The notes under the pieces were generated by a model. The model was not told the DNA's origin and made no database searches. It worked only from the letters and a program-made list of their open reading frames with translations. The position numbers and the translations under genes were made by a program. Of a DNA stretch of 61,185 nt, positions 7,629 through 39,629 are shown one piece after another. The stretch's first letter is position 1; every line of letters starts with the position of its first letter. Source of the DNA: Candidatus Saccharimonadota bacterium (GTDB lineage: Bacteria; Patescibacteriota; Saccharimonadia; Saccharimonadales; HK-STAS-PATE-42); assembly GCA_036826375.1 (NCBI GenBank), contig DAISWL010000003.1, positions 1 to 61,185 of the forward strand, given 5' to 3'.

Positions 7629-8119
7629 TACTTGCTCTCCTTTGCTACCTTCTTGGTGCTGGTTTTAACTTTTGTAGTTCGCTTAGGGTCAGATTTAAGG
7701 TTGGCATCTTTTGGTTTAGACGGTGCATCTACTACCTTTTTATTGGAAGATGAGTTGGCTTTAAGTTGACCGCTGACTACTACATAGATATTGGATGTTC
7801 GGTGCATATATGGGTGAGCGGAGCCTCTGGCAATAGGGCGGAATCTCTTATACCTAACGCCAGGACCAACCTGTATAGAACTGATTACCAACGCCTTTTC
7901 TTCTATGCCGTGATTATTAGTAGCATTAGCCGCCGCTGAGGATATTAGCTTATGTATAGATTCGGCAGCTCTTCTTGGAGTATGATTCAAGATTGTTAGA
8001 GCATCACTAACACTTCTACCCCTAACTAGAGCAGCTACTTCACCGGTTTTGCGTGGAGATATCCTTAAGCCAATAGCGCTAGCCTTAGCAGTGTTTAGAT
8101 TTAATGATTTAGCCGCCAT
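7628..8119 (-). CDS. rplV: 50S ribosomal protein L22 with basic C-terminal extension
   Basis: RISPRK, RFRPIARG, RTSNI. Confidence 0.97.
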   Translation of the reverse strand: MAAKSLNLNTAKASAIGLRISPRKTGEVAALVRGRSVSDALTILNHTPRRAAESIHKLISSAAANATNNHGIEEKALVISSIQVGPGVRYKRFRPIARGSAHPYMHRTSNIYVVVSGQLKANSSSNKKVVDAPSKPKDANLKSDPKRTTKVKTSTKKVAKESK

Positions 8120-8391: not shown

Positions 8392-9228
8392 TTACCTCCT
8401 CTTCCCTTCATGTCTACTTCTGACTATGTATTTATTAGTATCTTTTCTTGAACGAGTTTTGTAACCCAGAGTTTTCATGCCCCATGGTGTTCTAGGAGCT
8501 TTACCTGTACCGTGGCGTCCACCATCTCCACCACCGTGAGGGTGATCTGTAGCATTCATGACTACACCTCTGACTGAAGGTCTCCATCCTTTATTACGCT
8601 TTCTACCGGCTTTGCCCCATTTAATGTTCTGATGTTGCTCATTACCAACGGAACCGATAGTAGCCATGCAATCTACAAGAACTTTACGCATTTCTCCGCT
8701 TGGTAGCTTGATAAGAGCGTACTTACCTTCTTTAGCATTAAGTTGAGCGCCTGTTCCGGCACTACGAACTATTTGAGATCCACGTCCTGGCTGAAGCTCA
8801 ATGTTGTGGATATAAGTACCAGTTGGAATATCGTTAAGCTTAAGACGATTATCTGGTTCTATTGGAGCTCCAACCCCAACCTGAATAGTTTGACCTACGT
8901 AGGTTTTAGAACCAGCGATTACGTAATGAAGCTTGCCTTCTTGATCTTCAAGCCGAGCAATTCTAGCTGAGCGATTAGGATCATATTCTATTTCTTTGAC
9001 TATAGCTTTCATGCCATCGAAAGGTTTAAAATTAATTAATCTTAAGAATTTCTTGTGTCCACCGCCACGATGACGAACTGTAATTTTTCCCTGATTATTT
9101 CTACCAGCCTTACTCTTTTTGATTTTAAGCAAAGATTTAACAGGCTTGTTTGTAGTGATCATTGAGAAATCTTGGTTAGTCATTCCTCTACGACCCGGAG
9201 TTGTTGGTTTATAGGTTTTAAGCGGCAT
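8392..9228 (-). CDS. rplB: 50S ribosomal protein L2
   Basis: GRNNQGKIT, EYDPNRSA, VRGVVMNATDHPHGGG. Confidence 0.99.
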   Translation of the reverse strand: MPLKTYKPTTPGRRGMTNQDFSMITTNKPVKSLLKIKKSKAGRNNQGKITVRHRGGGHKKFLRLINFKPFDGMKAIVKEIEYDPNRSARIARLEDQEGKLHYVIAGSKTYVGQTIQVGVGAPIEPDNRLKLNDIPTGTYIHNIELQPGRGSQIVRSAGTGAQLNAKEGKYALIKLPSGEMRKVLVDCMATIGSVGNEQHQNIKWGKAGRKRNKGWRPSVRGVVMNATDHPHGGGDGGRHGTGKAPRTPWGMKTLGYKTRSRKDTNKYIVRSRHEGKRR

Positions 9229-14892: not shown

Positions 14893-17694
14893 TTACAAAT
14901 ACTTCCCTGTCCAGCTGGTTTTGTTAAGCTTAATTTGTGATGGAGTTCCAGTTGCTACCACCTGTCCGCCTCCGCTTCCGCCTTCCGGGCCAATATCGAT
15001 GATGTGATCAGCCGCCCTTATTACATCAAGATTATGCTCAATAATAATCATACTGTTGCCGGAATCGACGAGAGCATTCAACACGCTTAAAAGTTTTTTG
15101 ACGTCATCTATATGTAAGCCTGTGGTTGGTTCATCTAGAATGTAGATTGTTTTGCCGGTTGCTCGCTTACTGAGTTCGGTTGCTAACTTAACTCGTTGAG
15201 CTTCACCTCCTGAAAGAGTAGTAGCTGGTTGCCCTAAGGTAACGTAGCCCAGGCCAACATCTACTAAAGTTTGGAGTTTTTTACCAATACCTGGCTGATT
15301 TTTGAAGAAATCTAGAGCATCATCAATAGTTAAGCTTAGTACTTCGCTGATGTTTTTGCCGCCAAAAGTAATTTCAAGTGCCTCGGTATTGTAACGTTTG
15401 CCTTTGCAAGATTCACAAGGGACGTATACATCTGGAAGAAAATGCATTTCTATTTTAATCATGCCATCTCCCTGACAACTCTCGCATCGCCCGCCTTTAA
15501 CGTTAAAACTGAAACGACCAGATTTATAACCACGAATGTTGGCCTCTGGAGTAGCTGCAAATAGTTCACGTATCGGAGTGAACAAGCCAGTGTAAGTTGC
15601 AGGGTTAGAACGAGGAGTTCTGCCAATTGGCGATTGATCAATTAGTACAATTTTATCCAGATTTTCAATTCCGGTAATTTGATCGTGCTTGCCCGGAACT
15701 GTGCTAGCTCGGTTAAGTTGACGGAGTAGCTCCGCTGCCAAAATACTATTAACCAAGGTTGATTTACCAGATCCGGAAACGCCAGTTACGGTAACCATTT
15801 TACCTAAGGGGAAATCGACATCTATATTTTTAAGATTATGTTCCCGCGCGCCCTTAACACTTAAGCTTAAGCCGTTGCCAGCTCTAACTTTTTTAGGTTT
15901 AGGAATAGATTTCCGGCCAGAAAGATAATCGCCAGTTATGCTGTTTTTGTCATCCGCAACCTGCTTTGGGGTTCCCTGGGATATCAACTGTCCACCGTGG
16001 ATGCCCGCCTTCGGGCCTATATCCACTAGCCAATCAGCGCTCTCGATAGTCTCTTCATCGTGCTCAACAACAAGAACTGTATTTCCAATATCTCTAAGAT
16101 GTTTTAAGGTTTTTATAAGTTTAGCGTTATCACGTTGATGCAACCCAATTGAAGGTTCATCTAGAACATATAGAACGCCTTGAAGACCAGAGCCGATTTG
16201 GGTAGCCAGGCGAATCCTTTGGGCTTCGCCTCCTGAAAGAGTGTTAGCAGCCCTATTTAAGCTTAAGTAACTGAGGCCAACATCACTTAAAAAACTTAAC
16301 CTTTCATTTACTTCTTTAATAATTGGGCCGATGATTACATCTTGTTGCTGAGATGTAGATAAATTCGAGAAATACTTCAGCGCATCTTCTGTGGTTAATT
16401 GAGAAATTTGATCTATCGATTCACTATTAAACTTAACCGCTAAAACAGACGGCTTAAGTCTAGATCCGTTGCAAGAATTACAAGGCAGCTCACGCATATA
16501 CTTTTCAATGTCTTTCCTAACAGCATCACTTTCGGTTTCTTGGTAGCGTCTTTCTAAATTATTGATTATGCCCTCGTATTTAGCATCGAAAGTACGGCCG
16601 CTAGAACCAAGGCGTACTGCGTACTTTTGCTTTCCCGTTCCGTAAAGAATTAAGTTTAGTTGTTCAGGTTTTAAATCTTTAACTGAAGTATTAAGATCAA
16701 ACTTATAGCTATCGGCTACGGCACGCATTAAGTTCATATACCAGCCATCGTAGCGCATCCCGCCAAAAGGGCGAATTGCACCCTGTAAAATAGAAAGATT
16801 TTTATTAATCAAAAGCTCGGGATCAACCTCCATTTTGCTACCCAAGCCTGTGCATTCTGGGCAAGCTCCGTGTGGTGAATTGAAACTGAAAATTCGCGGT
16901 TCTAGCTCTGGAATCTCAACCTCAGGATGATCAATACAGGCGTAAGTCATACTATATTTGTTAATCTGATCGTTATCTGCGTTCATTAAGCTTAAGTGGC
17001 CAGTTCCAACCTCAAGAGCTTGCTCTACGCTATCAGCGATTCTGGCTCGTTCGGAATCTGAAATCACAACTCTATCTATAACAACTTCAATGGTATGTTT
17101 TTTTTGTTTCTCTAGGGTTGGGAACTCATCTAACTGGTAGATGACGCCATCGACTCTGACTCTGGCGAAGCCTAATTTTTTGTATTGCTCGGGGATGTGA
17201 GCAAACTCGCCTTTTTTATCGTTAACTACTAATGAAAGGATTATAGATTTTTGCCCTTGATTTAAGCTTAATACCTCTTCTAGAATTTGATCTTTAGTTT
17301 GTTTACTAACTTTTTTACCGCACTTTGGGCAGTGCGGGATCCCAGCCCGAGCAAAGAGTAGACGCAGGTAATCGTAAATCTCGGTTACTGTTCCAACTGT
17401 AGAACGGGGGTTGCGGCTGGTAGATTTTTGATCGATAGATATAGCCGGAGAAAGGCCTTCTATTCTATCAACATTTGGTTTTTCCATCTGGCCTAAAAAC
17501 TGGCGAGCATAACTACTTAAACTTTCTACATAACGGCGTTGACCTTCGGCATAAATTGTATCAAAGGCTAAGCTAGATTTCCCCGAGCCTGAAAGCCCAG
17601 TTATTACCACAAATTTATTGCGTGGAATATCGATATCAATATTCTTAAGATTATGCTCGCGAGCACCTCTGACCCTTATAAATTCCTCACTCAT
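14893..17694 (-). CDS. uvrA: Excinuclease ABC subunit A
   Basis: [14 protein letters not shown], two ABC domains, LSGGEAQR twice, zinc fingers. Confidence 0.99.
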
Positions 17695-17744
17695 TAAGCT
17701 TAATTATAGCACGGGGAACAAGCCGACTCACATATCATCTAAAG

Positions 17745-17764
17745 GGCTAACTTAAGCGTTATAC
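17745..17764 (+). other. attI-like simple site at the left end of the array
   Basis: GGCTAAC-ttaagc-GTTATAC: inverted AAC/GTT cores with 6 bp spacer. Confidence 0.5.
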
Positions 17765-17864
17765 AAAACTCCGCTTCGCATAACTAAATTCTTTCCGTAA
17801 TCCTTTATCCTTGATATACTAACGTATATCGGAGTAAAGGACTCCGGAAAGACCCTGCCCATTA
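17757..17864 (+). repeat. Internally deleted copy of the 18521-18687 palindromic repeat
   Basis: Matches 18521-18687 with one substitution, except for a 59 bp deletion bounded by GCTTCGC microhomology. Confidence 0.9.
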
Positions 17865-17954
17865 AACGCAATTCAAAAAATATTTTTCTCAACATAAGGA
17901 ATTTTTATAGGCTTAAGAAAATTTAATAAACTTCAATCTATAAGCAATATTATT

Positions 17955-18344
17955 ATGAAAACAATATTAGTAGACGCAATCAACGCCTTTGTTCTAAAAG
18001 ATGAAGGAATCTTTAATGAAATGTATAAAATGCTTGAGCAGTATCCAAATAGAAAAATCATTCTTACAGGTGCAAATGATGAACAAATGGAAAAATTTGG
18101 ATTAAACGATATGCCCTATGAGGTTTTTACTCTCAAGCACGACCCTGAAAAAACTGATCCAAATTATTTCAAGATTATGCTCAAGCATTTTAATTTGAGC
18201 GCTGATGATGTTGTATATTTTGAACATAATGAGGATGCTGTAAAAAGCGCTCAATCAGTTGGAATCAATACATTTCATTACGACAAAGACGCAAAAGACC
18301 TTGGGGCGTTGAAGAAGTTTATCGACGGAAGCCTATCAAAATAA
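17955..18344 (+). CDS. HAD-like hydrolase (cassette gene)
   Basis: ILVDAINAFV (motif I-like), K..P.YF, YFEHNEDAVKSAQSVGI (motif IV-like). Confidence 0.7.
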   Translation: MKTILVDAINAFVLKDEGIFNEMYKMLEQYPNRKIILTGANDEQMEKFGLNDMPYEVFTLKHDPEKTDPNYFKIMLKHFNLSADDVVYFEHNEDAVKSAQSVGINTFHYDKDAKDLGALKKFIDGSLSK

Positions 18345-18428
18345 ATATAGAAACGAAAAATATTTTTTGAACTTCTCGCTATCGCTCGACCACGCTGCGC
18401 TCTCACTACACTTCGTTTCGTTCGGGGC

Positions 18429-18528
18429 GTATAACAAGGGATAAAAGGTTCAGCCCTCGGCTCGGGCTTCACCCAAATTTTTCTTCCACTTCGTTCCAGA
18501 AAAACTTCTTTTATCCCTAACGTTATAC
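18429..18528 (+). repeat. attC-like site 1
   Basis: GTATAAC-aagggataaaag...cttttatccctaac-GTTATAC. Confidence 0.65.
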
Positions 18529-18690
18529 AAAACTCCGCTTCGCTACGTTTTGTATAATGGGCAGGGTCGTTAAACTTAGTTATAGCTTCGCTTTCGCTTC
18601 GCATAACTAAATTCTTTCCGTAATCCTTTATCCTTGATATACTGACGTATATCGGAGTAAAGGACTCCGGAAAGACCCTGCCCATTATAC
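18521..18690 (+). repeat. ORF-less palindromic unit (37 bp hairpin plus AAT/ATT variant attC-like site)
   Basis: TTATACAAAAC/GTTTTGTATAA hairpin; GTATAATGGGCAGGGTC (18552-18568) pairs perfectly with GACCCTGCCCATTATAC (18674-18690). Confidence 0.7.
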
Positions 18691-18752
18691 GACATTTGAG
18701 CTGGGGCCTACAAAAGCAAAGATTTATTACTTTTCTAATTAAACCTAATATT

Positions 18753-19253
18753 ATGGATGATGAAAACTTTATGAAAGAAGCACTCAAAGAAGCGGAAATC
18801 GCTTTGAAAGAAGGCAATTGGCCAATAGGTTGTGTAATTGAACTTGATGGAAAAATTATTGCTCGCGCCCATAACCAAGTTTATACTTTGAAAGATAAAA
18901 CCGCCCATGCCGAAATGCTCGCAATAAAACAAGTTCAAAATATTTTAAGAGAGAATAAGAGAAAAGCTACTTTATACACAACCTACGAACCTTGTCCAAT
19001 GTGCTTCGGCGCCACAATTCTTAGTAGAATTAAAAGAGTTGTTTCTGGAATTGATTTAGACAAAAGTGGCGCCATGTTTTTTAGAGATAATCTTCCGCTT
19101 CTTTTCAAACAAGAAAAATTTCATGTTGAATTTACGAACGGAGTTCTTGCAGAGGAATGCCATAAAGTTTTCATCCAAGGGGAACCAACCAAAAATTTAA
19201 TTAGAGATGGTTTAATTAGAAAAAATCATGATTCTGAAAAGTTAGATTTATAG
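18753..19253 (+). CDS. Zinc-dependent nucleoside deaminase (TadA/guanine deaminase family; cassette gene)
   Basis: HAEMLAI and EPCPMC motifs; ATG at 18753 (MDDENFM) preferred over TTG at 18696. Confidence 0.9.
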   Translation: MDDENFMKEALKEAEIALKEGNWPIGCVIELDGKIIARAHNQVYTLKDKTAHAEMLAIKQVQNILRENKRKATLYTTYEPCPMCFGATILSRIKRVVSGIDLDKSGAMFFRDNLPLLFKQEKFHVEFTNGVLAEECHKVFIQGEPTKNLIRDGLIRKNHDSEKLDL

Positions 19254-19330
19254 ACGGCCCCAGCTCAAACGCTTCGGATTTTCTACGAAAATCCTCGTGC
19301 CGTTGCACTCTCGGACTTCGTCCTCGCATC

Positions 19331-19446
19331 GTATAACAGGGGATAAAGAGTTCGAAGGGTTGCACCCTTCTCTCCCAAATTTTTTTCTCAGCCAGTTCGC
19401 TATCGCTCACGGGAGAAAAAAACTTTCCTTATCCCCGATGTTAGAC
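19331..19446 (+). repeat. attC-like site 2
   Basis: GTATAAC-aggggataaag...ccttatccccgat-GTTAGAC; homologous to 18429-18528 with compensatory changes. Confidence 0.65.
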
Positions 19447-20088
19447 CCTACCAACCACCTCATCTAAACTTTTTCTAAACTTAGGCCTTTTTAAGTATCC
19501 ATCAGCCTGATCCCTCACCCCGATTCCCATAACGACTGTGGAGGTTAAGCTTTGCTCACTTAAGTTTAGTATCTTATTGAACTGAGATGAATCAAAGCCT
19601 CCCATGGGGTTGGCATCTATGCCAGCTAGAGCTGCGGTGGCTAGCATAAAGCCGAGGGCGATGAACACTTGGTTTTTAGCGAAGGCCGTAAATGCCTCTT
19701 TATCCATGCCTGCAAGCATACCGTTAATCGAGGCCTTGTAGCCGTTTAAAGATTGGTCATCAACACTTAAGTTTTGTGATTTCGCCACTCTTGCGAAAGC
19801 GGCATTAGCAACCTTTTGCTTATCGGTTTCAGCCGCTAGAACTATAAAGTAACTGGCTTCAGTTACTTGAGGCTGGCCGTGGGCTGCGGATCTTAATTGC
19901 TCGCGAACTTTGGTATCTTCAATAATTAAGAACTTCCATGGTTCTAACCCGTTGCTAGATGGAGCCATCCGCCCAGCCTCTAAAATTAAGTTTAGGTCAG
20001 CTTCAGATGCAACCTTAGTGGTATCGTATTTTTTAATAGCTGCTCGCCAGTTTAGAGCTTCTTGAAGTTCTTCTGTGCTAATCTTCAT
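19441..20088 (-). CDS. Nitroreductase family NAD(P)H-dependent oxidoreductase
   Basis: WRAAIKKYD, APSSNGLEPWKF, GIDANPMGGFD. Confidence 0.92.
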   Translation of the reverse strand: MKISTEELQEALNWRAAIKKYDTTKVASEADLNLILEAGRMAPSSNGLEPWKFLIIEDTKVREQLRSAAHGQPQVTEASYFIVLAAETDKQKVANAAFARVAKSQNLSVDDQSLNGYKASINGMLAGMDKEAFTAFAKNQVFIALGFMLATAALAGIDANPMGGFDSSQFNKILNLSEQSLTSTVVMGIGVRDQADGYLKRPKFRKSLDEVVGRV

Positions 20089-20145
20089 TTTGTTTATGAT
20101 GCCTTTCTTATTAATTATTGATAAATTTAAACATTTAGATATTTC

Positions 20146-20433
20146 TTATATTAATAATTTACTAAGCTTAATTCCAACAGATTCTAACAAATCGTGATTA
20201 ATTATGTAGTAGATGCCCCTACCTTCTTTTCTTTGAATTATAACTCCGGAGCTAACAAGAATTTTAAAATGGTGACTCAAGGCAGGTTGGGTTAAGTTGA
20301 AGCCAACCGATAAACTAGCACAACTTGAACCCTGAATCGGACCCTCGGCTATCTTTTTTATTAAGCTTAATCTAGTTTTATCAGCTAAAGCAGATAGAAC
20401 CTGTATTCTGAATTCTAGGTTATGTTCTTCCAT
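20146..20433 (-). CDS. ArsR/SmtB family transcriptional regulator
   Basis: ALADKTRLSLI, TQPALSHHFKIL, RKEGRGIYY. Confidence 0.92.
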   Translation of the reverse strand: MEEHNLEFRIQVLSALADKTRLSLIKKIAEGPIQGSSCASLSVGFNLTQPALSHHFKILVSSGVIIQRKEGRGIYYIINHDLLESVGIKLSKLLI

Positions 20434-20686
20434 AAATTAAGTTTAACATAAACATATTTATATATATAGATGTTTGTATACAAGTTGATATTAACCATTA
20501 ATCTTAGCTCACCTGAAGTTCTTTTGGCTATTCAAACTTTAGGGAATAGGGCTCTAGGTCATCTGAATAGTTCAAACTTTTAGTAAGATGTATTGATTAA
20601 CTATCAATCGATAATAGGAGTGCTTACGTGGTATAATTTTAAGTATTAGCAGTTAATCATTAACTACAAGTAAAGGAAAAATATAA

Positions 20687-37756: not shown

Positions 37757-38422
37757 CTACTCGGCCTCCTCTGTTTCAGTCGAGTTAGTAGTATCCTGAA
37801 CGCCCTCAGATTGAGTTTGAAGATCGGCGGAATAGTTGTCCCCACTGCCGCCGGTCTGCTGAATGGTCTGGTCGTCAGATGTAGAATAAATGTCTATCTT
37901 ATATCCGTCGCAAAGGGCAGTATCGTTATTACACCCCTCCGGATAGGTTACATACTTAAACATGTCAGATCCTATACTATTACCATAACCATCATCTAAG
38001 AGAACTTCTAGTCTTGGATTAAGCTTAACCCAATATTCATCTTCAAGATTAGATTCTAGAGGATATTGGCCCTTCTGGCTGAAATACAGATCTAGCTCTG
38101 CGGCCATAGCTTCAGCCTTATAGTATTTTGCACTATCCTCGGCTACATTTTTAATAGAAATAGCCCTTCTGTAACCAAACAGGAATATACCACCTATAAT
38201 AAGTACTGCCAACAGCAATTCTCCTAGAGAGATAGTCTTTTCGTTATTGGAATGGGTTGTTGATCCGAAAATTAAAGCTGCTTTTTTGTTTACTGATTCA
38301 AGGCTATCAATCCCATTTTTCTGACTAACGTTTTTTTTAGATTTTAGCGCTTTATTCTTTTCTGATACGGATGAATTAACCGATTTTTTATTAATATTAT
38401 TTAATGATTTCTTAGCTGCCAC
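37757..38422 (-). CDS. Pilin/pseudopilin-like membrane protein with long basic leader
   Basis: ISLGELLLAVLIIGG, LDLYFSQKGQYP, FKYVTYPEGC. Confidence 0.6.
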   Translation of the reverse strand: MAAKKSLNNINKKSVNSSVSEKNKALKSKKNVSQKNGIDSLESVNKKAALIFGSTTHSNNEKTISLGELLLAVLIIGGIFLFGYRRAISIKNVAEDSAKYYKAEAMAAELDLYFSQKGQYPLESNLEDEYWVKLNPRLEVLLDDGYGNSIGSDMFKYVTYPEGCNNDTALCDGYKIDIYSTSDDQTIQQTGGSGDNYSADLQTQSEGVQDTTNSTETEEAE

Positions 38423-38514
38423 AGCGATATACCTACTAAACTCTTAAGCTTTTATTATTATTTAATTCTACCATAAATTGCATTGATGATGTATAATAAA
38501 TGATGATTAAAAGC

Positions 38515-38589
38515 GCGGGTGTTGTATAGTGGCTATTATGCCAGCCTTCCAAGCTGGAGACGAGAGTTCGATTCTCTCCACCCGCACCA
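38515..38589 (+). tRNA. tRNA-Gly (TCC)
   Basis: Acceptor GCGGGTG/CACCCGC, anticodon loop CTTCCAA, GTTCGA T-loop, encoded CCA. Confidence 0.97.
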
Positions 38590-38623
38590 AAAGTACATTC
38601 ATATTTTAAATTCAAGATGGTAC

Positions 38624-38700
38624 GCCTCGGTAGCTCAGTGGATTAGAGCAATGGGCTTCTATCCCACAGGTCGGGGGTTCGAATCCCTCCCGGGGTACCA
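38624..38700 (+). tRNA. tRNA-Arg (TCT)
   Basis: Acceptor GCCTCGG/CCGGGGT, anticodon loop CTTCTAT, GTTCGAA T-loop, encoded CCA. Confidence 0.95.
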
Positions 38701-38734
38701 AACAAAGAGCTGGCTGGTAGGCCAGTTTTTTGTT
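38701..38734 (+). terminator. Intrinsic terminator after the tRNA pair
   Basis: CTGGC/GCCAG stem (extendable to 14 bp with G-U pairs) followed by a T tract. Confidence 0.75.
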
Positions 38735-38803
38735 GGGTTATCTCACGTAAGTGAGAATTCGAACCACCGCCGGGCGTTCGGGCGAAGCTTTGCATTAGCA
38801 AAC

Positions 38804-38819
38804 ATCCCTCCCGGGGTAC
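38804..38819 (+). repeat. Direct repeat of the tRNA-Arg 3' end (att-like scar)
   Basis: ATCCCTCCCGGGGTAC identical to 38683-38698. Confidence 0.85.
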
Positions 38820-38846
38820 TATTCTAGACGTAAAGCGTCTAATAAA

Positions 38847-39629
38847 TCATTTTCCATCTGTTGAGATACTATCCCAACCTGCGATCAATTTAAGTGCTAT
38901 GCTTTTTAAGCAAATTATATTTCTAGAATTCAAACTGCGGGCAGCAATTTCTAACTGATCGTCTAACCGCTTGAGATTATTTATAATTAAAGCATCATTC
39001 AGCGCAAATTGTAGAAGTTGATCGGCAAATAACGGATTTCTACTCAGTATTGGACCATGAAGATAACTGCCAAAAATATTAAACTTAATAGCTCCTTCTT
39101 GATTGTCGCCTCCGTTATTACCGCTTCCGGAAACAACTTTTCCGAACGGCTTGGTTGATTCAGATTTAATAAAAGTTCTTCCGCTATGGTTTTCAAAACC
39201 ATACAACTGACCGTAGGCGGAATCTATTTCGATATTACCAATTAACCTATCCTCAGAACCAATAGTTTCAATATCCAAGATTCCAATACCTTCAAGTTCC
39301 TTTCCTTCAGATGTTACAAACTTCAATCCAAATAATTGATAGCTTCCACAAATAAGTAGCATCGGTACTCCTCTTTTGGCTAAAGCAAGTAGTTTACCAG
39401 CCTTAAGCTTAATATCTTTTGCAACTTTAATCTGGCTACTATCCTGGCCGCCGCCAGATACAATCAAATTAGTATCGTCAGGTATATCTTCACCGATACC
39501 AACCTGTAAAATTTCAGATTCCACACCTCTCCAACTTAACCTTTTTTGCAGAATTAAAGTGTTACCAGTATCCCCGTAAACGTTTAGCTCTTTTGCATAA
39601 AGGTGCACAATTTTTATTTTTTTACTCAC
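38847..39629 (-). CDS. gatD: GatD (CobQ-like) glutamine amidotransferase
   Basis: YGDTGN, GGGQD, ICGSYQLFG, GFENHSGRT, SYLHGPIL. Confidence 0.93.
   Translation of the reverse strand: MSKKIKIVHLYAKELNVYGDTGNTLILQKRLSWRGVESEILQVGIGEDIPDDTNLIVSGGGQDSSQIKVAKDIKLKAGKLLALAKRGVPMLLICGSYQLFGLKFVTSEGKELEGIGILDIETIGSEDRLIGNIEIDSAYGQLYGFENHSGRTFIKSESTKPFGKVVSGSGNNGGDNQEGAIKFNIFGSYLHGPILSRNPLFADQLLQFALNDALIINNLKRLDDQLEIAARSLNSRNIICLKSIALKLIAGWDSISTDGK

Follow-up and report, generated by a model that had tools for sequence, protein, structure and literature searches.

Sedentary chromosomal integrons, such as the Vibrio superintegron, carry a tyrosine recombinase gene beside, and divergent from, a row of co-oriented gene cassettes, most of which hold a single open reading frame (ORF). 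The cassettes end in an imperfect palindrome with inverse core sites (..AAC/GTT..) and a crossover at G|TT; ORF-less and duplicated cassettes occur, and the content varies from strain to strain. Integrase-less arrays, known as CALINs (clusters of attC sites without an integrase), are common (Cury et al., 2016, IntegronFinder; PMC9024848). Here we describe a locus with the same traits, namely co-oriented and mostly single-ORF cassettes of strain-variable content, in a 61,185-nt stretch of AT-rich DNA (G+C ~39%, hereafter the window) from a Saccharibacteria-like bacterium of the Candidate Phyla Radiation (CPR). Named relatives of its ribosomal protein S16 belong to Candidatus Saccharibacteria and Saccharimonadales. 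We put at roughly 80% the probability that positions 17758–19446 hold the cassettes of a chromosomal element that captures genes in the manner of an integron, and whose own integrase gene was lost by deletion except for about 30 nt. CPR bacteria are missing from a 2021 list of integron-bearing phyla (PMC8618304), and in the literature that we could search we found no publication on integrons in CPR bacteria, an absence that is no proof of novelty.

Other described systems share part of this anatomy. In the pdif modules of Acinetobacter plasmids, gene modules bounded by 28-bp duplex sites in alternating orientation are moved by Xer recombinases. As in archaeal integrons, one cassette gene of our locus is shared by Bacteria and DPANN-type archaea, yet the archaeal IntIs reported by Ghaly et al. 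(2022; PMC9668308) have the additional domain and their attC sites fold canonically, unlike the system described here.

The cassette array and its turnover between strains

The eight core heptamers stand at the very positions given in an earlier note, which had taken the region for an array of integron-like cassettes inserted by a tyrosine recombinase: GTTATAC at 17758, ATTAAAC at 17861, GTATAAC at 18429, GTTATAC at 18522, GTATAAT at 18552, ATTATAC at 18684, GTATAAC at 19331, and GTTAGAC at 19440. Every cassette begins with TTAxAC directly past the crossover point (G|TT or A|TT). Homology breakpoints in two other genomes (L104 and L105, see below) fix the cassette boundaries and thus four cassettes in the window:

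Cassette 0, 17759–17861, plus strand: ORF-less; a 5'-truncated b-type site ending in ATTAAAC, probably dead
Cassette 1, 17862–18522, plus strand: HAD-like gene (17955–18344), pre-site module and a-type site (18429–18528)
Cassette 2, 18523–18684, plus strand: ORF-less; mini-hairpin TTATACAAAAC..GTTTTGTATAA (18523–18558), then a b-type site (18552–18690)
Cassette 3, 18685–19440, plus strand: deaminase gene (18753–19253), pre-site module and a-type site (19331–19446)

The HAD-like gene and the deaminase gene are the two plus-strand genes between uvrA and a nitroreductase gene. The 129-residue HAD-like protein gives a weak HAD_2 match (E 7e-4) and 28.1 bits against NCBIfam HAD-IA, just under the cutoff; it matches only the C-terminal half of the HAD-IA profiles and may be a truncated or divergent HAD hydrolase. 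The deaminase is of the CMP/dCMP type (PF00383, E 3e-26). Cassette 0 consists of repeated sequence: 23 nt are exact (17757–17779 = 18521–18543), and 102 nt are 96% identical (17772–17873 = 18595–18696), the copy at 17772–17873 being b-type and without its 5' arm, owing to a deletion between two CGCTTCGC direct repeats.

The complete sites and the left junction, a "simple site", read as follows:

18429–18528, a-type site 1: GTATAAC-A-AGGGATAA..TTATCCCT-AAC-GTTATAC
18552–18690, b-type site: GTATAAT-GGGCAGGGTC..GACCCTGCCC-ATTATAC, an 18-bp closed hairpin
19331–19446, a-type site 2: GTATAAC-A-GGGGATAA..TTATCCCC-GAT-GTTAGAC
17745–17764, plus strand, left junction: GGCTAAC-TTAAGC-GTTATAC, the first cassette beginning after the G at 17758

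The two a-type sites are homologous imperfect palindromes, as the earlier note had recognized, and the first base pair of their stems differs by a compensatory change (AGGG/CCCT versus GGGG/CCCC). Folded as DNA, they reach z-scores of -3.8 to -5.2, the bottom strand being the more stable one, and the b-type site folds with -36.7 kcal/mol on the top (z -9.1) and -40.6 on the bottom strand (z -10.5). In the b-type site the AAC/GTT cores are altered on both sides to AAT/ATT by a paired C-to-T and G-to-A change, which preserves the hairpin pair. GTATAAC and GTTATAC differ from the integron consensus RYYYAAC/GTTRRRY at one position each. Each cassette ends in an imperfect palindrome with the arms R'' (GTATAAC) and R' (GTTATAC). 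In the mechanism we propose, the recombinase would bind these sites as folded hairpins and exchange strands at the crossover point; this agrees with the slight excess in stability of the bottom strand and with the two-sided base change in the b-type site. The left junction resembles the L'-6 nt-R' half of a canonical attC, e.g., CTTAAC-TCAAGC-GTTAGAT of aadA1.

These repeats are far from expected by chance. In the 61 kb window, the a-type 5' motif matches twice against 0.04 expected, the b-type arm three times and a 30-mer of the b element twice against 0 expected each, and 0.01 occurrences of GTATAAC-N60-90-GTTAKAC are expected. No copy lies in the window outside 17745–19446, where dispersed copies of a repetitive extragenic palindrome (REP) or miniature inverted-repeat transposable element (MITE) family had been looked for, and at this locus the repeats are restricted to gene boundaries. 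Rfam gave no family match in the cassette region (only three tRNAs in the whole window), and a promoter and terminator scan of the region found nothing over background. Generic scans for TAAC..stem..GTTA allowing G-T pairs or a mismatch were too noisy (~5 chance matches per 61 kb); we kept only zero-mismatch matches at the expected places and went on to inspect the sites visually. Inside, the sites vary too much to be aligned cleanly.

The content of the array changes within the species. Contigs L015 and L016 belong to the same species as the window, with flanks 96.5–98% identical to it up to position 17714 on the uvrA side (98% nucleotide identity for L015) and from 20653 on the MetRS side; everything between these points differs. 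Alternative cassette content is present in these two contigs:

L016: integrase, GmrSD, a helix-turn-helix protein, a 136-aa ORF, DUF6994, DUF6326, epimerase and DUF2200, the array lying on the strand opposite to the integrase
L015: integrase pseudogene, methylase, GmrSD_N, HNH and GyrI/Cass2

Beside the integrase start of L016 lies an attI-type junction, ..TAATAAC G|TTAGGC, and one L016 site has the canonical core GTTAGGC. A 22-codon hybrid ORF made of the start of the 136-aa gene and the end of the DUF6326 gene is seen where L015 10293–10392 is compared with L016 7164–8684.

The integrase gene itself has left a trace in the window. Its 3' end is preserved:

17728–17756, minus strand: integrase remnant of ~9 codons, ..K-(frameshift)-SPLDDM-stop

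Translated searches (tblastn) found SPFDDM/SPLDDM at 17748–17731, and nucleotide alignment to the intact L016 gene and the L015 pseudogene delimited ~30 nt with a 4-nt deletion, extending to the base that precedes the first GTTATAC. The L015 pseudogene is a larger remnant encoding HTLRHSYATHL...YTH. As had been noted earlier, the window holds no recombinase gene, and tblastn found no further relative of this recombinase in it; the b element, considered as a remnant of the integrase N-terminus, proved to be noise (E 4.8, with stops). The recombinase, presumed earlier to act in trans, is encoded in cis at this locus in the sister strains and was lost from the window strain, where the array should be static without a recombinase supplied from elsewhere.

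The remnant also changes the reading of the left flank, taken earlier for uvrA promoter DNA: 17728–17756 are the last ~9 codons of the deleted integrase gene. The earlier note had further reconstructed an empty site by joining the flanks. The joined sequence, CTAAC-TTAAGC-GTTAG, is arithmetically correct, but it was not confirmed as an ancestral empty site: its left half lies next to what remains of the integrase gene, and it is missing from the sole cassette-free uvrA-nitroreductase allele that we found. A more distant relative without the cassettes at this site lies on an 899 kb contig. The cassette-free allele, in a more distant species (L011/L012), has a gap of 460 nt between the two genes without recombinase, sites or simple site; the gap holds an unrelated, GC-richer small ORF, which rules it out as an empty allele.

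The deaminase cassette recurs in two other genomes, in unrelated contexts, with 93.6% nucleotide identity over 18685–19340 in L104 and 96.1% over 18685–19273 in L105. In both, the homology starts exactly at TTATACGACATTTGAG (18685), right behind the G of a different upstream site, in agreement with the crossover at G|TT postulated earlier; the cassette is found in three contexts in all, with homology from TTATAC each time. The upstream site of L104 is short, GCGTATAAC-GGGT-G|TTATAC (that is, GCGTATAAC-GGGT-GTTATACG), and that of L105 is a 142-nt palindrome ending in CCTC-G|TTATAC. At the 3' end, L104 diverges just past GTATAACAGG, and L105 switches to a module resembling that behind the HAD-like gene of the window, so that the inner parts of the sites appear exchangeable. 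The differing gene sets within the species, the integrase remnant and the re-use of one cassette elsewhere bear out the earlier proposal of an integron-like array made by a tyrosine recombinase.

The deaminase is also found as an ordinary gene without sites in L106 and L107. Homologues on contigs that bear marker genes of archaea (ribosomal protein L15e, Alba, thermosome and PolB) show 82–86% protein identity and 78–85% nucleotide identity, including parts of the untranslated regions (L100 5946–6573, L101 5963–6501, and L103 6001–6474), and no intact sites flank the gene in these contigs. Identities of this order suggest a recent transfer between CPR bacteria and DPANN-type archaea.

The recombinase family and its sites

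The intact recombinase of L016 comprises 277 residues; its gene lies next to uvrA and points away from the cassettes. Its best NCBIfam match is the integron integrase family TIGR02249 (205.6 bits, under the cutoff), in a near tie with XerA_Arch. Family members score 190–217 bits against TIGR02249 (cutoff 265), matching in two stretches, and 197–239 bits against NF040815, XerA_Arch "tyrosine recombinase/integron integrase", whose cutoff of 220 is reached by L026 (238.5 bits) and L021 (222.5 bits). IntI1 and the class 1 cassettes used below come from R100 and two other plasmids; BLASTP aligns IntI1 with the CPR recombinase at 29% identity, leaving a 44-residue gap opposite IntI1 ~195–250. The sequence of the VchIntIA crystal structure aligns in two blocks (9–180/9–180 and 205–274/248–317), leaving ~43 residues missing. 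The IntI-specific additional domain was not found in the sister-strain integrase in either alignment. With XerA (PDB 5hxy, E 8e-34) the protein can be aligned throughout, but unlike XerA and XerC-XerD it belongs with cassette arrays and not with a single dif site, and it retains the C-terminal ..SPLD motif common to IntI4 and IntI1. Judged by these alignments, the CPR recombinase is related to both IntI and XerA and lacks the IntI-specific insertion.

The IntI-specific domain contacts the extrahelical bases of attC. IntI is said to descend from a Xer-like ancestor that gained the helix reading these bases, as Escudero and colleagues reportedly proposed in 2016. The additional domain around patch III is the mark of an integron integrase (Messier and Roy, 2001, cited in PMC9668308). 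The canonical folded attC carries an unpaired central spacer and two extrahelical bases ~6 bp apart, and its AAC/GTT triplet is essential (PMC7439510). Analyzed in the same way as our sites, the aadA1, IMP-1, and aac(6')-IIc attC sites read R''-5 nt-GTT...AAC-5/6 nt-R' with a two-sided spacer and two single-base bulges, and the aadA1 site folded with a 5/4-nt spacer and two single-base bulges.

Arrays of similar build stand next to relatives of this recombinase in other genomes. In L026, a metagenome-assembled genome (MAG) of Nomurabacteria, the recombinase is 53% identical, and after it the opposite strand carries an attI-like junction, ..CGAGC G|TTATAC, and three cassettes whose terminal sites are all built in the same way; one of these sites, GTATAAC-A-AAGGATAT..ATATCCTT-AAAC-GTTAGCA, is clearly homologous to the a-type sites of the window. 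L066 (1–4144), a MAG of Paludibacter, encodes a recombinase with 45% identity; behind it, and in the same direction, come an attI-like region in which GTTGCGCATAC motifs are repeated and then three cassettes, whose sites have a one-sided bulge and the form ATATAAC-A-stem..stem-NNNCC-GTTATAT. An integrase next to an array with an attI-type point ending in G|TTRRRY is thus present in L016, L026, and L066, and a recombinase gene or remnant adjoins the array start in these three, in L015 and in the window. A genome scan returned 325 relatives of the recombinase, the closest from CPR MAGs (53–68% identity), followed by many from Bacteroidota (42–52%). The family of recombinase and sites seems to extend into Bacteroidota, where classical integrons are very rare (PMC9024848).

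At least 11 sites from four genomes share the layout R''-A-stem...stem-(1–6 nt)-R'. Their stem sequences are unrelated, yet complementary every time. At the junction of stem and core there is always 1 base on the 5' side and 1–6 bases on the 3' side (3–6 in all but one site), and at eight of the nine sites tested the bottom strand equals or exceeds the top strand in stability. In the window, L026, and L066, the arms R'' and R' lie 86–130 nt apart in direct orientation, and a one-sided bulge of ~2–5 nt between R box and stem is followed by 10–21 uninterrupted base pairs; the canonical spacer and two extrahelical bases were not found in the folded sites of these three genomes. The only short sites are that of L104 and the left junction of the window. 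TCGCTATCGCTC-like motifs recur within and beside sites. Directly upstream of R'', the window, L026, L104, and L105 share a conserved module of ~45 nt (ACGTTGCACTCTCACTACACTTCGTTYCGTTCGGG; ..ACGYTGCRCTYTC..CTTCG..), located as follows:

Window: ~18390–18428 and ~19298–19330
L026: ~8817–8861 and ~8042–8086
L104: ~1514–1552
L105: ~1591–1626 and ~2356–2395

This comparison of fold and sequence agrees with the divergent attC-like class suggested by the earlier note. The locus thereby departs from chromosomal integrons in its recombinase without the IntI-specific domain, the one-sided bulge in place of the two-sided spacer and two extrahelical bases, the module before R'', its self-complementary cassettes (see below) and its CPR host. 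As far as sequence can tell, the element works like an integron, yet it is without two defining features, the IntI domain and the attC spacer with extrahelical bases. A recombinase without the domain and sites without the bases form a coherent picture, and the two absences may be functionally linked.

Self-complementary cassettes

The palindromes are not the only folded parts of these cassettes. Just inside the cores, a cassette-specific terminal inverted repeat brackets the ORF:

Window, HAD cassette: 5' arm TTCAAAAAATATTTTTC, 3' arm GAAAAATATTTTTTGAA
Window, deaminase cassette: 5' arm TTTGAGCTGGGGCC, 3' arm GGCCCCAGCTCAAA
L026, cassette 1: 5' arm TTGCTCGAAATACC, 3' arm GGTATTTCGAGCAA

In the HAD cassette, this repeat spans 17 nt with 100% complementarity (17872–17888/18355–18371). 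Further perfect inverted repeats of 12–19 nt are nested through the coding sequences; the deaminase cassette holds nested perfect repeats at 18695–18708/19256–19269, 18731–18745/19209–19223, and 18759–18773/19161–19175. Strongly self-complementary stretches cover 17862–18428 and 18685–19330 in the window, 7150–9905 in L026, and 8241–8651 in L016. Of five CPR cassettes examined, four contain 3–6 perfect inverted repeats of at least 12 nt and one, L026 cassette 3, contains none; four control regions contain none either, with ~0.01–0.06 expected by chance.

Folded as a whole, the two window cassettes with genes reach z-scores of -7.4 and -11.2 against dinucleotide shuffles. When the coding sequences alone were compared with synonymous-codon shuffles, the HAD-like gene gave z -3.7 and the deaminase gene -4.0 to -4.8, its copies in L104 and L105 -4.5 and -5.7, the L026 cassettes -7.3, -3.4, -2.9, and -3.3, and the 136-aa cassette of L016 -5.2. 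The controls lie in another range: -1.9 to +1.4 for 17 flanking, integrase and unclassified ORFs, -2.4 to +2.9 for six class 1 cassettes, -0.7 for one cassette of L066 (Bacteroidota), and -1.7 to +0.8 for non-cassette and archaeal deaminase homologues. Exceptions among the cassette genes of L015 and L016 are DUF6326 (-0.7), DUF6994 (+2.9), and GyrI (-0.7). The two strands, sense and antisense, do not differ in how well they fold, and G-U pairs are few in the cassette copies, which points to the DNA rather than the mRNA level and disfavors, though not decisively, an RNA-level explanation of the stems. Cassette-wide self-complementarity might then act on DNA by drawing the two flanking sites together; alternatively, folding might stabilize an intermediate in which the cassette is single-stranded, and repair inside the stems would preserve the perfect match between the arms.

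Our tentative proposal, to which we give somewhat less than even odds, is that these loci form an unrecognized integron-like class in CPR and Bacteroidota, with an IntI-related recombinase lacking the helix, sites lacking extrahelical bases, and, in CPR, cassettes that are self-complementary throughout, implying that whole cassettes would fold as single-stranded or cruciform DNA at excision, transfer or capture. If so, integron-type gene capture would reach the ultra-small, host-dependent CPR bacteria with their reduced genomes, and the recombinase with its simplified sites would be a natural "minimal" IntI-like system that bears on the evolution of integron integrases out of Xer-like ancestors. 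The family, with its hundreds of Bacteroidota relatives, would escape surveys in which the IntI-specific domain is a requirement. Self-complementarity across a cassette is not part of the current integron model and suggests whole-cassette DNA folding in mobilization, which could, if real, be tied to the exchange between CPR and DPANN archaea. At this hotspot, turnover at the strain level brings in defense genes (GmrSD, methylase, and HNH) together with small metabolic genes.

Alternative explanations and the surrounding island

The best-surviving alternative, in our view an unlikely one, takes the window array as the remnant of a canonical integron, i.e., a CALIN with ordinary attC sites and a classical IntI elsewhere in the genome or community, the Xer-like gene being incidental. 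CALINs are common, integrons are known in DPANN archaea having this deaminase gene (PMC9668308), the cores lie near RYYYAAC/GTTRRRY with crossover at G|TT, the sites are imperfect palindromes of 100–140 nt with a more stable bottom strand, and one L016 core is the canonical GTTAGGC. With three complete sites, one truncated site and no integrase in 61 kb, the label hinges on accepting non-canonical sites as attC. Against a CALIN stands the recombinase gene or remnant that adjoins the array start in all five genomes named above; this recombinase is short of ~43–44 residues of the IntI-specific domain, and the sites are without the 5/6-nt two-sided spacer and the two single-base bulges of the aadA1, IMP-1, and aac(6')-IIc attC sites.

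A slightly less probable alternative is that a Xer-like recombinase swaps duplex modules at dif-like cores, as in pdif or IMEX, with the palindromes as mere passengers. The XerA-like scores of L026 and L021 would fit this, and so would the left junction of the window, CTAAC-TTAAGC-GTTAT, and the short site of L104, which looks like two 8-bp arms about a 6-bp overlap. In pdif terms the latter, GTATAAC-GGGT-GTTATAC, is indeed dif-like, but the sites here are mostly palindromes of 100–140 nt in direct orientation, and 28-bp duplex sites in alternating orientation were not seen in the window, L026, or L066. At most sites the arms lie too far apart (86–130 nt) to meet except through a hairpin or cruciform. 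From site to site the stems covary, a hairpin pair is kept by the paired change (C to T and G to A) of the b-type site, and the sites are direct and the genes co-oriented as in integrons. Very improbable is a chance flanking of two horizontally acquired genes by non-mobile repeats such as REP/MITE-like elements or terminators. Palindromes are common between genes and the b element is locally duplicated, yet the breaks in cassette homology seen in other genomes fall on these boundaries to the base, the window shows no further copies, and the region has neither a terminator-like signal nor an Rfam family match.

Several observations weigh against the integron-like array that we prefer to these alternatives. 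Recombination was not directly seen, as neither a circular junction nor an empty allele within the species was found. Several array genes of L015 and L016 have no recognizable site between them, and some mosaic breakpoints of these contigs fall inside ORFs rather than at sites, so that recombination other than site-specific exchange must also reshape the array. The b-type sites lack the AAC/GTT triplet and may hence be inactive. Covariation in the long-range stems of seven homologues was not significant (eight pairs changed on both sides, equaled in 142 of 500 shuffles), and the case for self-complementarity therefore rests on the shuffle statistics and repeat counts.

The array is embedded in a variable island with these neighbors:

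14893–17694, minus strand: uvrA, a 933-aa ORF, the conserved left flank
19441–20088, minus strand: nitroreductase gene, whose TAA stop and preceding Val codon fall within GTTAGAC, the R' core of the last site
20146–20433: ArsR gene, with the nitroreductase gene a divergent allele inside the island

The uvrA TATAAT and ATG leader (17692–17713) is kept in relatives as an invariant promoter and start block. The ArsR-nitroreductase module (19442–20653) shows only 67.7% nucleotide identity to that of L015 and L016 between flanks that are 96.5–98% identical, which extends the island from ~17714 to 20653, just upstream of MetRS. The nitroreductase gene, regarded earlier as resident, is on this comparison not a stable resident gene, and the cassette array lies inside a strain-variable island between uvrA and MetRS.

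Ten contigs from several samples carry an identical nitroreductase gene and agree base for base with the window over the overlaps. Most of the short-read contigs among them end within the 102-nt repeat. L006, a short-read contig from another sample, ends at the equivalent of window position 19340, 3 bases past the R'' core of the last site and at the same point where the L104 homology stops; this end may be an assembly-graph branch, i.e., alternative neighbors in that population. A 75%-identical nitroreductase in L019 stands in a different context and is uninformative. A sliding-window scan found unusually stable folds for the G+C content at 1–560, where the fold is unexplained, and at 38251–39060, which holds two tRNA genes (38515–38586 and 38624–38697).

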